Of a DNA stretch of 64,000 nucleotides, positions 11,714 to 42,790 are shown in pieces. Every line of letters begins with the position of its first letter. Position 1 is the first letter of the stretch. Both the position numbers and the translations under genes were made by a program. The notes below the pieces were generated by a model, which saw only the letters and a list, made by a program, of their open reading frames with translations, ran no database searches and was not told the DNA's origin. Origin of the DNA: Eledone cirrhosa (taxonomy: Eukaryota); the NCBI GenBank assembly GCA_964016885.1, contig OZ024743.1, positions 144,026,001 to 144,090,000 on the forward strand, read 5' to 3'.

Positions 11714-11730
11714 CAAATGGCTATTAAGAT

Positions 11731-11811
<81 letters not shown>

Positions 11812-12193
11812 GCAGAGTCATTCGAAGGTCAAAAGATATTTTTCAGCTTTTGTCTTATACGGAGAAGTGCGCGTGTGTGTGTATAAGTCTCTTTGTATGT
11901 TGATGTACGCGTGTGTATGTGTTTGTGTATATGTGTGTGTGTGTGTGTGGGTGGACCAGTATTTTTTTCCCCCTGGTAAAATGGTGTACATTATTCGATT
12001 TTTTCAGTAAAATCGGTTCTCTTAATAGAACATCAAAAATCTTAACAATAAAAGGTGTGAAATGATATTCACTATATATATATACACACATACATATATC
12101 CACTACATATATATATATATATATACATATATACATACATATATATGCACACATAAAAGCTGAAAAATATCTTTTGACCTTCGAATGACTCTG

Positions 12194-12263
<70 letters not shown>

Positions 12264-12280
12264 ATCTTAATAGCCATTTG
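11714..12280. repeat. Inverted repeat with ~130-bp arms (each containing GT/CA microsatellite) around a ~300-bp spacer
   Basis: 11714-11851 is the reverse complement of 12155-12280 apart from microsatellite length. Confidence 0.75.
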
Positions 12281-12319
12281 AATTCCTGATGATGATATAT
12301 ATATATATACAAATATATA

Positions 12320-12595
12320 TCATCATCATCATCATCATCACCGTTTTACGTCCGTTCTTCCACGCTAGCATGGGTTAGACGGGTTGTCCTGTTGTGGGCA
12401 GTGTCTGGTCGGCTGACCATGCCTTGCTCATACAGGAACTGATCTGGCTTGATTTCTACAGCTGGATGCCCTTCCTAACACCAACCTCATTTACAGTGAG
12501 TGCTGGGTGCTTTTTCGTGGCGCCTACACGTCCACTTTACAGTGTGGGCTGGGTGCTTTTTTGCCGTGGCACCTCCACGACCACCTTGCGGTGGG
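12320..12595 (-). mobile_element. 3' half of SINE family B with (TGA)n tail
   Basis: Reverse complement matches 40105-40325. Confidence 0.7.
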
Positions 12596-12604
12596 GGGGG
12601 GGGG

Positions 12605-13700
12605 CATATTGTTTATATGCTTCAGCATGTACCCATGGGAGGTCGGGTACCCTGTATTACTGCGTGACGCCAGAAGTCACGGTCGTGTGTCATTGACTTT
12701 GAGAGGTGTAGTTGGGTAAGGTCGGCTCTTATCACCTCATCCCAAGTCATCTTGGGTCTCCCCACTCCGCGGTTTCCATCAACTTCTAGTGCTCTGCACC
12801 TTTTTATGCAGCTGTCATCCTTCATACGCATCACATGTCCATACCAGCGTAACCGCCTCTCCTGCACGCAGCATTTGATTCCTCTTATGCTCAGTCTCTC
12901 TCTCAATTCATTTATGCTTTGTCGTTCACGTATATTACTGTTACACATCCATCGGAGCATGCAGGCTTCGTTTCTCTCTAATCTACGTAAGTCTTCCACC
13001 TTCAGCGCCCAGGTCTCACTACCATGCAACATCGCTGTTCGGATACACGCATCATACAGTCTGCCTTTCATTCTGAGGGAGAAGCCTTTTGCAGCTAGCA
13101 GTGGTAGTAGTTCCCTAAACTTCTTCCATCCCGTTCTTACCCTAGTTATTGTACTTTCTGAGCACCCACCTCCATTGCTAATTCGGTCACCTAGGTAGCA
13201 GAAGCTGTCTACTGTTTCTACAGGGCCCTCCCAGAGATTGGTGGTACTTGTTTCCTGTGGCTGTTTGCTTGCTGTTTCAGCACAGCTGCTGCATGTGAAT
13301 CCTACATTCTTAATTAAGCTTCCTGAGATCCCGCTACATCTCTTGTGTACCCATTGTTTGCATTTGGGGCAAAGAATGGAGTTCCTACCTACACCTTTCC
13401 TACATACTGAGCAAGGCCATTTCCCTGAGGGGATCTGGGTTCTGTTTTCTCGTCTACTTATAAGGACCTTAGTCTTTGTCATGTTGACTTTGAGGCCCTT
13501 TCTCTCTAGTCCCTGCTTCCAGGTTTGGAATTTATTCTCTAGTTCTACCATAGATTCAGCTATGAGTGCGAGGTCATCAGCATACAGGAGTTCCCATGGG
13601 CATCCAGTCTTAAACTCCTCCGTTATTGCCTGCAGGACTTTGATGAACAGGAGAGGGCTAAGAACAGAGCCGTGGTGGACCCCAACCTGTACGCTAAATT
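12605..13700 (-). mobile_element. 5'-truncated RTE-clade LINE (RT C-terminal half, embedded PHD finger, C-terminal domain)
   Basis: Uninterrupted frame 13700-12622: [26 protein letters not shown]4HC3 finger, FCYLG, MLHGSETW, RRLRWYGHV, GRPKMTW. Confidence 0.92.
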
Positions 13701-13701
13701 C

Positions 13702-15117
<1,416 letters not shown>

Positions 15118-15233
15118 ATAAGTTGAAAAAAATGAAAACGAAATTTCATTTCTCACTCTTAGTTTGGCACTTACTTAAATGTAAGTATGTATGTATACGT
15201 ACATACATATATGTATACAGACGTACAGTAGCA

Positions 15234-15286
<53 letters not shown>

Positions 15287-15432
15287 GTACACATACATAT
15301 ATGCACGCATCAGTTTAGCGGACGCTTATTATAACGCCGCTTTGTTCGTTTGTCAACAAACTGAACAGCCTGAATTTATGCCATACGGTGTTAAGGCAAC
15401 CACGTCACCTTTTTGTTTAACACTGACACAGG

Positions 15433-15477
15433 AACGATGTACTAGTTTCAAGCTTGTTAGCTATCATCAGCACCGTT
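15433..15477 (-). ncRNA. Minimal type I hammerhead ribozyme
   Basis: AACGGTG-CTGATGA-T-AGCT-AACA-AGCT-T-GAA-ACTAGT-A-CATCGTT: 7-bp stem I, palindromic stem III, GUA cleavage triplet. Confidence 0.85.
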
Positions 15478-15882
15478 TACCCATCTGCCAGATAGTTGAA
15501 CGTTCGAAAGTATATACTTTCCTTATGAAAATTAACGGCTGAGCAGCCTAATTTGCATAATGAGTGAGTTAAATCGGTCAGGCATACCGAAAACGATAAG
15601 TTGAAAAAAATGAAAACGAAATTTCATTTCTCACTCTTAGTATGGCACTTACTTAAATGTAAGTATGTATGTATACGTACATACATATATGTATACAGAT
15701 GTACAGTAGCATGCATATATATATATATACATACAGGTACACATACATATATGCACGCATCAGTTTAGCGGACGCTTATTATGACGCCGCTTTGTTCGTT
15801 TGTCAACAAACTGAACAGCCTGAATTTATGCCATACGGTGTTAAGGCAACCACGTCACCTTTTTGTTCAACACTGACACAGG

Positions 15883-15927
15883 AACGATGTACTCGTTTCA
15901 AGCTTGTTAGCTATCATCAGCACCGTT
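15883..15927 (-). ncRNA. Minimal type I hammerhead ribozyme (second unit; stem III ACGAGT)
   Basis: Identical to 15433-15477 except for one stem III substitution; 450 nt away. Confidence 0.78.
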
Positions 15928-16153
15928 TACCCATCTGCCAGATAGTTGAACGTTCGAAAGTATATACTTTCCTTATGAAAATTAACGGCTGAGTAGCCTA
16001 ATTTGCATAATGAGTGAGTTAAATCGGTCAGGCATACCGAAAACGATAAGTTGAAAAAAATGAAAACGAAATTTCATTTCTCACTCTTAGTATGGCACTT
16101 ACTTAAATGTAAGTGCAGCTAAACTGATGCGTGCATATATGTATGTGTACCTG

Positions 16154-16199
<46 letters not shown>

Positions 16200-16311
16200 T
16201 GCTACTGTACGTCTGTATACATATATGTATGTACGTATACATACATACTTACATTTAAGTAAGTGCCATACTAAGAGTGAGAAATGAAATTTCGTTTTCA
16301 TTTTTTTCAAC

Positions 16312-16945
16312 TTATCGCCATAGATCAGATATTATGGTTGTCCCTGGCAATATACGATGCTGTATAATGGTTAAAAGTGTCTCCGCGGTCCTGTCTTCTA
16401 CTGCTACTAAAATACATCTTCTGGTACCTCTTTCCAAAGCACCAAAACCCCACTGTGTTTTCACAGAATGGCCACGATGGTATTTCCTTCTCACGAATGC
16501 GCTTTCATCAATCTCGACAATTCGGTTTGGCCCGCTAAGCTTAATGTTTTGTGCCACATAGTACTCTGCACATAGATCACGGCAAAAATTTCGCCAATCT
16601 GCTACCGCCACATTCGCGATACAACATTCCTCTGAAATCTTCTTTTGCCCCAAAATATAATATATCAACTATTTGTTCACACTTCAAATTGCTATTTTCT
16701 AAAAATGTGCCTTTTCTAATAGAAACCTGTTTTCTACATGGTCCTTTACACGACCAGATAATCCCATCTGACACATTTTGTTTCGCTACTTCCAACATAC
16801 GTTGACCACATGAAGGGCAGACCTTTTGTGTATTCAGAAGTCCTTGAATTTTCAACCAATTGACGGTATCTGCTGTAGTAGCGGTAGCGATGGCAAGATC
16901 GCGATGGTTAATTCCCTTAACACTTGGGTATATTGTAGAACTCAT
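16312..16945 (-). pseudogene. Merlin (IS1595/IS1016-like DDE) transposase, frameshifted and 3'-truncated
   Basis: N-terminal CPSC..WSC..C..SIRKGTFLE zinc ribbon; VEIDESAFVRRKYHRG, QWGFGALER and ILPGTTIISDLWR. The frame ends exactly at the HHR-repeat junction. Confidence 0.88.
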
Positions 16946-17078: not shown

Positions 17079-17323
17079 AGGTTGGTGAAAATAATTTGTT
17101 TTCTAAACATTTCATACCATGAACTGTAAAAATACAGTTCATGGTATTAGCTGTCAGAAGTGAAAGTAGGGAAGATTGACGAATGACGTCACATATTTTC
17201 ATAGTTATGGTTATCAATATAAAAAACAAGTCATTTTCACCAACAGTGGAGTTAACTTAAATGAAAATATAGGTGGCCCTTAAAAGGGCCAAATTATGGT
17301 TATCAAATTTTTTTCACCAACCC
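17079..17323. mobile_element. mariner-type MITE
   Basis: TIR RGGTTGGTGAAAAWAATTTG at both ends with TA flanks (17077-17078 and 17324-17325). Confidence 0.65.
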
Positions 17324-17499: not shown

Positions 17500-20085
17500 G
17501 TGGTAGTAATACGGAAATAAACGATGTTTGACGAGTGACGTTACCTTCGCCTGTTTCCATCGGCTGCTTGGACTGACAGCTAATAGCGTTGTAGTGCCGA
17601 TATCTGAATTAATTTCCAATACCATCGTCACATTTTCTACACTATCAGCTGATTTGCATTTTTTGCACCTTTTAGTATGGCGGATATTTAAATATATTTA
17701 CATTACCAATAATATTTAATACGACTCTAAAGTAGTATATGCAGGAAGTGCTGGACTCTGAAAAAAATTTCTTCTAGTTGTTTATAAATTTGCACCTTTT
17801 TCAGTAACCCCTAATATTTTAATATTATTATAAGACTTTAAATAATGTTTGCCATCCTAAAATGGAGAAATTTCAATTTTTAAAAATTAAAATTTTTTTT
17901 TTAACTAGTTAAGTTTTTCCAAATATCTAAAATTAAAGTTAATTTAAGTACTTTTTGTAATAAAAAAAACTTAATTTCTCTTGTTTATTAATGTCATATT
18001 AAAAATGTTAACTGTAGATAAATAACATTGATATGATGTCTACTGCAAAGAAGCTGAAGTTAGATACCAGCAGTAAGGTTAGACAGTGGTGTGATGATTA
18101 TGTTAGATATGGATTTCAAAAAGCTGACACTAAAAAAGATACACCAGATCAGCCCATGTGTTTGCTATGTTCAAATGTTCTATCAAATAGCTGTTTAAAT
18201 CCTGCAAAACTTAAAAGAGACCTTGATACTAATCACACCAATGATAAAAACAAGTCACTGGAATACTTTACTTCGCTGAAAAACAACATAAAAAATCACA
18301 AGCTAATATGTATGACTTGTTTTGTAAAAAGTCAGATAGAAATAAAGCTTTAACAAGAACATCTTTTGAAATTTCATATTTGATTGGTAAAAACAAGAAA
18401 CCATTTACATTAGGAGAACAGTTAATTCTGCCAAGTATAAAAATTGCCACAGAGAATCTTTTTGAAAGCTGCAGTATTAAGGACAAAGAAAAATTAAGCC
18501 AGTTACCATTGGCATCAAATACCGTAAAAAGAAGGATAATTGATATTTCTTCTGATATAGAAAATCAGATACTAACTGCACTGAAGAAAAGCATGTTTTG
18601 GTCTGCAAGTGGACGAAACTACAGATATTAATAACAAGGCTCAATTAATTTGCTATGTACGGTTTGTAGACCTGATAAAAAAGAATTAGTAGAAGAGTAT
18701 TTGTTTTGTCTGGTATTAGACATTACAAGTAAAGGTCAAGATATATTCAATAAAATTGAAGAGTATTCTTTAAAAAATGGTGTATCTTGGAGCAAGTTGA
18801 CTTCAATAACAACAGATGGAGCAGCTGCAATGACTGGTAAAAATTCTGGTTTGATTGCAAAAATTAAAGAACAGACCCCAAATTGTATTTCAAATCATTG
18901 TATGATTCATCGAGAGGTTTTGTGTTTAAAAACATTCAAAGACAGAGATGCTCAAATATTAAATGACCAGCAGCTGAAAGACATTGTCAAAATTATCAAT
19001 TTGATCCATACAAGAGCAAAAAATTCTAGAATGTTTGAATCTATTTGTGAATCTTCTGGAAGTAATTATAATAGATTGTTATTGAACAATGATGTGCGTT
19101 GGCTGTCTTTTGGGGATGCTATGAAGAGAGTTTTTGAACTGAGAGAAGAAATAATAGTTTTTCTAAAAAAACGGAATGATGAAAGAGCAAGTGTATTAGA
19201 AACCAATGAATGGAATGTGCAACTCGCTTATTCAGTAGACATTTTTGGTGAACTGAACAAACTAAATAAGTGTCTTCAGGGTAACAATGCAGATATTTTT
19301 ACTTCAATCAATTTTATTACATATTTTCAATCAAAATTAAACATCTTTATAAAAAGAATTGAATCGGACAATTACTCATTACTTTCAAACCTTGAAATAG
19401 AGCTTAAAAAGAGAAGATTTTGACTCCATCAATGTAAAGAAGATTATTCTTTCTCATTTAAATGTGCTTTCCACAAGTTTTTCAGATTATTTTGACTTGA
19501 TGGAAAAAGATATTGTTAGCGGAAATTTATGGATAAAAAACCCGTTCACCGAGATCGAGCAGTTAGTGTCAGAAAATGACGCTGGAAATTGTAAAAATTT
19601 ACTACCTGCACAATGCTTATATCAGTTGATGGATTTGAATTCAAACGAAGACCTGAAAGTGATATTCGAAAGCAGAAAGAAAGAACTATGGATCGACTTA
19701 TTCTTGATTGGGTAGTTTAATGAAATCAGCCAACTTACATTGAAATATTTGACTTTATTCCCATCTAGCTTCTAGCTACTTGTGCGAAAAAGGGTTTTCG
19801 CAGTTGGTAGAAATCAGCACAAAGAAGATGAATAAACTGTCAGCAATTGACGAGTGTATGAGACTGGCATTAACTAGTGTTGAACCTTGATTTTCTAAAC
19901 TCACTGATGAGGCGCAGCAGAAAAGCTACTAGTTAATTGTGTTCGATTACATACACACGCATGAAACACTAAAATAAATAAATACTTTATTATTTTTTTT
20001 TGAAAAGTTTTGTATTGTATAGGTTCCGTGAAGAATTCAAAATATTTAGAGGGTTCCTCGGTTTTAGAAAGGTTGGCGACCACTG
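17500..20085 (+). mobile_element. hAT Buster/Charlie element; 3' TIR present, 5' TIR not found (start approximate)
   Basis: Ends AAAGGTTGGCGACCACTG (reverse complement CAGTGGTCGCCAACCTTT), a typical Charlie-type terminus. Confidence 0.7.
18033..19915 (+). pseudogene. hAT (Buster/Charlie; ZBED5/SCAND3-like) transposase, several frameshifts and stops
   Basis: BED-like PMCLLCSNVL..KLKR..H; LQVDETTDI; TTDGAAAM; HCMIHREVLC; VRWLS; C-terminal YLCEKGFS dimerisation motif. Confidence 0.9.
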
Positions 20086-40689: not shown

Positions 40690-42790
40690 TCACTACCCTC
40701 TTCACTAAATCACCATTTACTAGCATTACCCCACCTTACCACCATCTCACCACAAATACAACTACTCCATCATCACCACCACTGCCGCTACTACAACCAC
40801 ATACACCACCTCACATTACCACCATCTCACCACAACTACAACTACCCCATCACTACAATTGCCACTATCACCTCCACCACATACATAACCTCACATTACC
40901 ACCACCTCACCACAACTACAACTACCCCATCACTACCATTGCCACTATCACCTCCACCACATACACCACCTCACATTGCCACTGCCTCACCACAACTACA
41001 ACTACCCCATCACTACCATTGCCACTACTACCACCACCACATACACGACCTCACATTATCACCATCTCACCACAACTACAACTACCCCACCACTACCATT
41101 GCCACTACTACCACCACATACACCACCTCACATTACCACCACCTCACCACAACTACAACTACCCCATCACTACCATTGCCACTATCACCTCCACCACATA
41201 CACCACCTCACATTACCACCATCTCACCACAACTACAACTACCCCATCACTACCATTGCCACTACTACCACCACCACATACACCACCTCACATTACCACC
41301 ACCTCACCACAACTACAACTACCCCACCACTACCATTGCCACTACTACCACCTCACATTACCACCACCTCACCACAACTACAACTACAACTACCCTATCA
41401 CTACCATTGCCACTATCACCTCCACCTCACACACCACCTCACATTACCACTACCTCACCACAACTACAACTACCCCATCACTACCACTGCCACTATCACC
41501 TCCATCACCTCACCACAAATTCAACTACCCCATCACTACCACTGCCAATACTACCACCACATACACCACCTCACATTACCACCATCACCTCAACACAACT
41601 AAAACATCACTACCATTGTCACTACTACCACCACCACATACACCACCTCACATTACCACCACCTCACCACAACTACAACTACCCCATCACTACCATTGCC
41701 ACTACTACCACCGCCACATACACCACCTCACATTACCACCACCTCACCACAACTACAACTACCCCATCACTACCATTGTCACTACTACCACCACCACATA
41801 CACCACCTCACATTACCACCACCTCACCACAACTACAACTACCCCATCACTACCATTGCCACTACTACCACCGCCACATACACCACCTCACATTACCACC
41901 ACCTCACCGCAACTACAACATCACTACCATTGCCACTACTACCACCAGATACACCACCTCACATTACCACCACCTCACCACAACTACAACTACCCCATCA
42001 CTACCATTGCCACTACTACCACCACATACACCACCTCACCACAACTACAACTACCCTATCACTACCATTGCCACTACTACCACCACATACACCACCTCAC
42101 CACAACTACAACTACCCTATCACTACCATTGCCACTACTACCACCACCACATACACCACCTCACCACAACTACAACTACCCTATCACTACCATTGCCACT
42201 ACTACCACCACCACATACACCACCTCACCACAACTACAACTACCCTATCACTACCATTGCCACTACTACCACCACATACACCACCTCACCACAACTACAA
42301 CTACCCTATCACTACCATTGCCACTACTACCACCACCACATACACCACCTCACATTACCACCATCTCACCATAACTACAACTACCCCATCACTACCATTG
42401 CCACTACTACCACCACATACACTACCTCACCACAACTACAACTACCCTATCACTACCATTGCCACTACTACCACCACATACACCACCTCACCACAACTAC
42501 AACTACCCTATCACTACCATTGCCACTACTACCACCACCACATACACCACCTCACATTACCACCATCTCACCATAACTACAACTACCCCATCACTACCAT
42601 TGCCACTACTACCACCACATACACTACCTCACCACAACTACAACTACCCCATCACTACCATTGCCACTATCACCTCCACCACTTACACCACCTCACATTA
42701 CCACCATCACCTCAACTACAAAAACATCACCATTACTATCATGACCACCACCATTACTATCAGCCCCATCACCATTAGTACTACTACCAT
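40690..42790. repeat. ~2.1-kb C/A-rich minisatellite (80-bp unit with ~60-bp deletion variants)
   Basis: Units recur at 41641, 41721, 41801 and 41881; shorter variants after about 42000. Confidence 0.92.

Follow-up and report, generated by a model that had tools for sequence, protein, structure and literature searches.

The window, meaning the whole 64-kb stretch of DNA that was analysed, contains a tandem array of non-coding units at 15118-16317. Head-to-tail units start at 15118, 15596 and 16046. Positions within the unit are given as q numbers, with q1 as the first base of the unit on the plus strand, and the RNA sense corresponds to the minus strand. The first full unit (15118-15595, minus strand) is 478 nt long and the second (15596-16045, minus strand) 450 nt, with a GC content of 37%. 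Compared with unit 1, unit 2 has 7 substitutions and a shorter internal TA tract (15237-15283 in unit 1). A third unit (16046-16114, minus strand) is 5'-truncated, covers q1-69 and stops at the inversion junction, whose sequence consists of 3 filler bases (16115-16117). The array ends with an inverted partial arm on the plus strand (16118-16317), which runs from q174 to q1 and has no hammerhead. The first-pass annotation, made from the letters of the window, had placed the unit starts and the inverted partial unit at these same positions. It had also denied the array any coding capacity; the open frames in the array are low-complexity TA read-throughs only, and the longest open frame of the unit has no match in Pfam.

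On the RNA 3' end side, the array abuts a (TA)n-rich microsatellite (13703-15120) of 710 TA copies and ~1.4 kb, which is the likely insertion target. The first 58 nt of unit 1 (15118-15175, minus strand) form a "tail" between q1 and q59, the preferred RNA 3' ends and the outer-end positions found family-wide. At the right end, the inverted arm adjoins a truncated Merlin/IS1595-like transposase with a 2-nt microhomology and no TA run.

Several other repeats surround the array. The Merlin/IS1595-like transposase (Pfam PF12762; 16318-17601, minus strand) is cut by the array inside its catalytic domain, and the downstream half of the transposon is absent from the window except for the other terminal repeat. 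This transposon family is itself repeated (86 candidates, 40 of them scored), with long terminal inverted repeats and some relatives in facing pairs. A Rfam Histone3 stem-loop match at 17250-17295 (minus strand; score 37, gathering score 34) lies within the Merlin terminal repeat and is likely a chance palindrome. A 5'-truncated LINE at 12320-13701 (minus strand), which we take to be RTE-like, encodes a reverse transcriptase (RT) and a PHD-like finger by Pfam, has an (ATC)n tail and sits between TA runs sharing a variant motif. An inverted arm pair at ~11716-11860 and 12156-12290 contains internal (TG)n/(CA)n tracts, resembles sequence beside locus L057 and is possibly another non-autonomous family of the Penelope-like element (PLE) type. 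Fragmented transposase frames at 18018-19715 (plus strand), presumably hAT/Buster-like, include a stretch at 18635-19423 without a Pfam match. A degenerate ACC-rich minisatellite with a period of 80 nt spans 40724-42721.

The hammerhead motif and its family in the genome

Each full unit carries a type I hammerhead motif on the minus strand. Motif 1 (15424-15490 with the extended helix I; core 15433-15477) has the palindromic loop III CUAG and a predicted cut at 15440/15439. Motif 2 (15874-15940; core 15883-15927) has its predicted cut at 15890/15889. The spacing is 450 nt, and the cores and cuts agree with those proposed in the first-pass annotation. Loop III of unit 2 reads CGAG through a rare change at 15894 that abolishes the palindrome, CUAG being the family norm. 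The motif is made up of helix I (6-7 bp, or ~16 bp when extended across two bulges), CUGAUGA, a U.U mismatch below a 4-bp helix II, GAAA, a single-pair helix III closed by a loop of 4 nt, and GUA.

The hammerhead had been described as minimal, a term that does not fit this architecture. According to the accessible text of PMC4209133, helix III and loop 3 are dispensable in the minimal hammerheads of PLE pseudo-LTRs (pLTRs), with a helix II of 7-8 bp and a short helix I in the Schistosoma examples, and the canonical type I layout of metazoans is at its most effective when two copies pair as a dimer through a palindromic loop III. With its 6-7 bp helix I, 4 bp helix II and palindromic loop III, the predicted motif of the unit is canonical rather than minimal by the definition in that text.

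A scan with hammerhead models had been proposed, and the Rfam scans matched none of these models to the window array. Rfam miRNA matches scored below the gathering thresholds and were dismissed as TA-repeat noise. For the isolated motif, folding z-scores of -0.63 to -1.55 do not stand out. Folded as a circle, the monomer reaches -144.9 kcal/mol against -92.7 for mononucleotide shuffles, which we discount as support because the TA repeats inflate this gap.

The family extends far beyond the window. In the 3.0-Gb genome searched, the exact 26-nt core occurs 10,858 times and the reversed control 0 times, so the hammerhead core is present beyond chance. A sister core with a changed position 7 has 14,322 exact copies, again with 0 for the reversed control, bringing the two cores together to more than 25,000. 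Sister subfamilies are mostly ~76-85% identical over most of the unit, are likewise ORF-less tandems and retain the hammerhead. After the last base of a unit, another unit begins 6,777 times, and a non-A base comes next 37 times. Of these 37 exceptions, 30 were inspected: 18 reflect a point variant, 10 a break at an inversion and 2 an end in TA, and none led into an ORF. No ORF was fused to a unit in the loci translated, where neighbouring LINE and PLE fragments were separate insertions. The family is neither confined to a single locus nor always attached to an RT/GIY-YIG ORF, two outcomes that the first-pass annotation had named as fatal to its reading, and the tandem arrangement it expected recurs genome-wide. 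Unit pieces were also present in contigs of four runs labelled as four organisms, three of them with few contigs (6, 21 and 28), and were not counted as support.

Variation within the motif was analysed in 86 distinct 67-nt hammerhead variants drawn from 324 matches in overlapping loci. Position 7 and loop II are the only parts of the core with recurrent changes, a constancy that is partly built in because the search pattern picked the 26 core columns. The covariation alignment covers 29 of the 86 variants: the 7 that recur, most of those from sister subfamilies and two more. It excludes truncated rows and the remaining singletons. In these 29 related rows with pre-selected core columns, 92.3% of the alignment cells are paired and the covariation score exceeds all 500 shuffles. 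Just 2 pairs changed on both sides in this alignment, which is not above the shuffles (465 of 500). One helix I pair was found as G.U, U.G, A-U and C-G.

Insertion ends and target sites

Taking 40 loci in the list order of the core matches yielded 42 insertions, of which 23 are two-arm inverted, 3 complex and 16 single-arm (26 of 42 inverted). Their 71 outer ends, corresponding to RNA 3' ends, concentrate at two sites 58 nt apart, with 34 at q1-10 and 23 at q55-69 (57 of 71). Another 10 fall at the internal TA tract, partly as an artefact of long tracts that broke the clustering, and 4 elsewhere. Among the 23 two-arm insertions, 14 combine one q1 with one q59 end, 9 have at least one unclassified end and none has two ends alike. 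The terminal ends in replicate loci (L001-030 and L071-100) comprise 28 of the q1 type, 22 of the q59 type and 9 others. The window array is atypical, with both outer ends at q1, compared to 0 of 23 two-arm insertions sampled, and with its right end outside TA. Simple twin priming on one RNA is not favoured, because the inner breaks do not fall at q1 or q59.

TA runs lie beside 56 of the 71 outer ends and beside 490 of 4546 background positions taken from these loci. Loci L172, L187, L189 and L192 show an identical variant TA pattern at both flanks. An addition of the TA tracts at insertion found no support, given that several loci have one pre-existing TA pattern on both sides and that the sole empty-site homologue, for 1 of 105 insertions, is uninformative; any target-site duplication, which in a non-LTR retrozyme should exceed 4 bp when there is one, is masked by the TA tracts. 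In some loci, including L010, L019, L021, L023 and L030, short repeats run from ~q59 to the internal TA tract and then restart at q59. Such repeats suggest that copying was re-primed or that the element inserted into a TA tract of its own.

The family hence combines partial tandems carrying an inverted 5'-truncated copy, two fixed 3' ends and a bias towards a microsatellite target, all of PLE type. The strongest of the PLE signs are the two fixed 3' ends, with their 58-nt tail, and the family-wide (TA)n targeting, both of which were absent from the first-pass annotation. Two RT start sites account for the PLE tail in the accessible text of PMC11167929.

Autonomous Penelope-like elements and described relatives

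The genome contains long open frames of a type with RT plus GIY-YIG. An ORF of 938 aa in L051 has GIY-YIG above and RVT_1 below the Pfam cut-off. The ORFs of L249 (1,240 aa), L250 (808 aa) and L251 (713 aa) have no Pfam match, and those of L249 and L251 align to L051 (E 8e-17 and 9e-6). The L249 element is presumably Neptune-like, going by its Cx4CxxC linker. L250 and L251 encode a CxCX5C linker, as described for Hydra in the accessible part of PMC8557442. The elements at L249:1452-5171, L250:1344-3767 and L251:1257-3395 represent young, abundant PLE families that are autonomous, have intact frames overlooked by Pfam, and all end in TA. Two 3' ends are seen in the L249 family, spaced by 60 nt, and likewise in the L250 family, spaced by 171 nt; TA follows in both cases, and inverted copies have one of each end. 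Autonomous PLE families in this genome thus show the same pattern of two ends, a TA target and one tail per insertion as the hammerhead unit family. The 60-nt tail of L249 also encodes the first codons of its ORF. Its length is near the 58 nt of the unit, a weak pointer to a partner and no stronger than that because no sequence similarity was found.

A search for an autonomous parent, covering a partial sample of the PLEs in the genome (20 + 20 GIY-YIG loci and 30, 20 and 20 loci of three PLE families), yielded separate neighbouring insertions only. Local alignments of the unit with 10 PLE loci stayed at or near the shuffle level (top score 31, shuffle maximum 27) except in L061, where a separate copy of the unit lies 2.6 kb away from the PLE ORF. 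An apparent fusion of an array with a PLE ORF in L076 turned out to be an array next to a 5'-truncated copy, with TA between them. As separate observations, the 3' UTR of a Hydra-like PLE in L103 and its relatives contains a hammerhead-like motif that has the variant first core CAGAAGA and shares with the unit the U.U at the helix II base, and U.U also occurs in another PLE family (L080).

These searches bear on whether the copies are truncated pLTR fragments of an unseen autonomous PLE instead of an independent non-autonomous family. The unit start leads to another unit in 6,777 cases against 37, with 0 of 30 inspected exceptions leading into an ORF, although this junction test is blind to a parent with an internal deletion. 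Xenopus retrozymes match PLE pLTRs in the available text of bioRxiv 10.64898/2026.07.22.740005, and PLEs are abundant in this genome and were sampled in part, which would leave room for such a parent. We consider a pLTR origin very unlikely given the lack of a fused ORF in translated loci, the lack of similarity to the sampled PLE families, and the several subfamilies that each have ORF-less tandem arrays.

The unit closely resembles animal non-LTR retrozymes. In the accessible texts of Cervera and de la Pena 2020 (PMC7229834) and Li et al. 2026 (bioRxiv 10.64898/2026.07.22.740005), these are non-coding tandems, low in GC, whose units measure a few hundred bp and each contain a type I hammerhead, and they coexist with PLEs. 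The unit likewise forms head-to-tail tandems in which two or more complete type I hammerheads follow one another, is non-coding, has no LTR around a different interior, measures a few hundred bp and has a GC content below 50%. Its 1-bp helix III and palindromic tetraloop are shared with HHR_Amex1 of the axolotl, and its U.U at the base of helix II with HHR_Amex2, as presented in the accessible portion of PMC7229834. The monomer had been called unusually long, but 450 nt falls within the repeat sizes of 150-450 bp (PMC7229834) and the consensus lengths of 51-972 bp (bioRxiv 10.64898/2026.07.22.740005) given in these portions. The first-pass reading as a retrozyme family consequently holds as a dispersed, non-coding hammerhead tandem with Penelope-type inverted ends, without the unusual length and the minimal type.

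The unit, known here from DNA alone, departs from the non-LTR retrozymes described in the accessible texts by its inverted arms, 58-nt tail, (TA)n targeting and internal TA tract, and it has no pLTR homologue among the sampled PLEs. The word "inverted" is absent from the main text of PMC7229834, while in the available text of bioRxiv 10.64898/2026.07.22.740005 "tail" is absent and "inverted" occurs in one reference only; supplements could describe similar ends. Inverted arms together with a tail and targeting of TA were not described for any retrozyme in the titles and abstract openings of the literature searched, a search that most subscription papers lie outside.

Autonomous EN+ PLEs (Neptune, Hydra and Poseidon), as far as the available portions of PMC8557442, PMC11167929 and PMC4209133 describe them, share with the unit the partial tandems, an inverted 5'-truncated copy, a tail at one end, the (TA)n bias and a hammerhead upstream of the 3' ends. 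They differ by an attached RT/GIY-YIG ORF, which the unit lacks, and by a quoted tail of 30-40 bp versus 58 nt. Non-autonomous PLEs of Chlamys, such as MRC1, are likewise ORF-less PLE derivatives with multicopy head-to-tail insertions in the accessible part of PMC8557442. These generally have 3' sequence in common with an autonomous family and mostly lack canonical hammerheads, whereas the unit keeps its hammerhead and no partner similarity was found. The cave-cricket satellite pDo500 resembles the family by a hammerhead per repeat and compensatory stem changes, but the accessible text of PMC2837043 describes it as satellite DNA, whereas the unit family consists of thousands of short dispersed insertions with PLE ends. 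By its genomic features, the element thus belongs with the non-LTR retrozymes, a class already known, and appears to work like a non-autonomous PLE.

The copying template and a proposed route

The position of inner breaks informs on the RNA that was copied. In the 42-insertion sample, which is blind to copies truncated at the cut, inner breaks are scattered and none falls in q272-q302, the predicted cut being at q294/295. Genome-wide, the cut triplet is intact in 14,637 cases and has a non-G first base in 213, of which truncations made up 6 of 30 inspected. Truncation at the cut site therefore amounts to ~0.3% over 3-4 positions and does not exceed the level of a control position (12 of 30 inspected among 37, against 6,777). 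The cut site is therefore not a stopping point for copies, and the template reads through it, which makes a circle or an uncut multimer likely. A linear cut monomer was rejected as template, since copies run through the cut site without a pile-up there.

Arrays are uniform inside and diverse between loci. At 20 family-polymorphic sites, discordance amounts to 13 of 926 comparisons within an arm and 7 of 607 across arms, compared to 22,186 of 56,317 between arrays. At locus L283, a single inverted insertion comprises ~19 near-identical units and has both kinds of end, one each. Such uniformity within arrays and diversity between them would imply a bottleneck of a single unit followed by amplification at insertion, and hence favours a circle over an uncut multimer. 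The argument is weakened because adjacent units in L284, three in number, have one variant in common and because the subfamilies are young. Uniform arrays also fit a homogeneous master array, and the shared variant in L284 fits multimer templates or local conversion.

Internal TA tracts vary in length inside some arrays, as expected if monomers inserted once and arrays then grew locally as a minisatellite by unequal crossing-over, with the hammerhead as a passenger. Local amplification has been proposed in the available text of bioRxiv 10.64898/2026.07.22.740005. Inverted insertions that are multi-unit in both arms with alleles common to both, the paired q1/q59 outer ends retained by arrays, and the helix I covariation make such growth very unlikely.

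The window array is very probably one copy of a non-coding, hammerhead-bearing tandem element with PLE-type ends, dispersed in thousands and probably mobilised in trans by the reverse transcriptase/endonuclease of a PLE, with a ligated circular monomer RNA as its probable template. As regards the template taken by itself, we lean slightly towards the circle; an uncut multimer is possible with a lower probability, and any other template is unlikely. A route through the circle would begin with transcription of arrays in the hammerhead strand. Ribozymes paired via the palindromic loop III would excise the ~450-nt monomer, which a host ligase may circularise. The association of ends with (TA)n could result from nicking of this target by a PLE enzyme. 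The pattern of ends puts the start of copying at two fixed internal positions with a spacing of 58 nt, which lie ~235 and ~295 nt downstream of the cut, and usually each arm uses one of them. The copies observed traverse the cut site, extend over up to ~16 units per arm and stop at scattered positions, and the two arms are often joined head to head.

Copying may also be PLE-driven from an uncut multimeric transcript of long master arrays, with the hammerhead being slow, protein-dependent or merely trimming read-through RNA, and with no circle. Long arrays that could serve as masters exist, and adjacent units in L284 have a common variant. For an element of the anole, uncut RNA was the main in vitro substrate and hammerhead mutants left insertion unchanged in the accessible text of PMC11167929. 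The weak helix III and the U.U at the base of helix II predict poor cleavage of the monomer (compare the available portion of PMC7229834), and 1 of 9 Xenopus retrozyme dimers cleaved in the accessible part of bioRxiv 10.64898/2026.07.22.740005. Retention of the hammerhead between subfamilies only ~76-85% alike is harder to reconcile with an uncut multimer, as is near-complete identity within arrays combined with high diversity between them, which would imply a single-unit bottleneck and then re-amplification. We regard the uncut multimer as a serious but less probable alternative to the ligated circle.

A bolder reading can be offered tentatively. A self-cleaving RNA circle of ~450 nt might be rolled by a dimeric PLE enzyme that primes on both nicked (TA)n strands at two fixed sites 58 nt apart, yielding inverted insertions of up to ~19 units per event. 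The internal TA tract would mimic the target and let copying restart, and the 1,240-aa Neptune-like PLE, with its 60-nt tail and the same target, would be a candidate driver. If true, this reading would provide genomic evidence linking the retrozyme circle model to the two-start-site mechanism of PLEs. In the accessible literature, the published link between retrozymes and PLEs consists of co-occurrence and pLTR similarity. The insertion junctions of this family add evidence of another kind, namely two fixed start sites split between the arms, the targeting of TA, and copies that read through the cut site. At stake are the identity of the enzyme that mobilises retrozymes in animals and the role of the circle as template. 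Because one genome contains more than 25,000 exact copies of the core, subfamilies that are young and candidate PLE ORFs that are intact, these questions could be addressed with the existing in vitro PLE assay.
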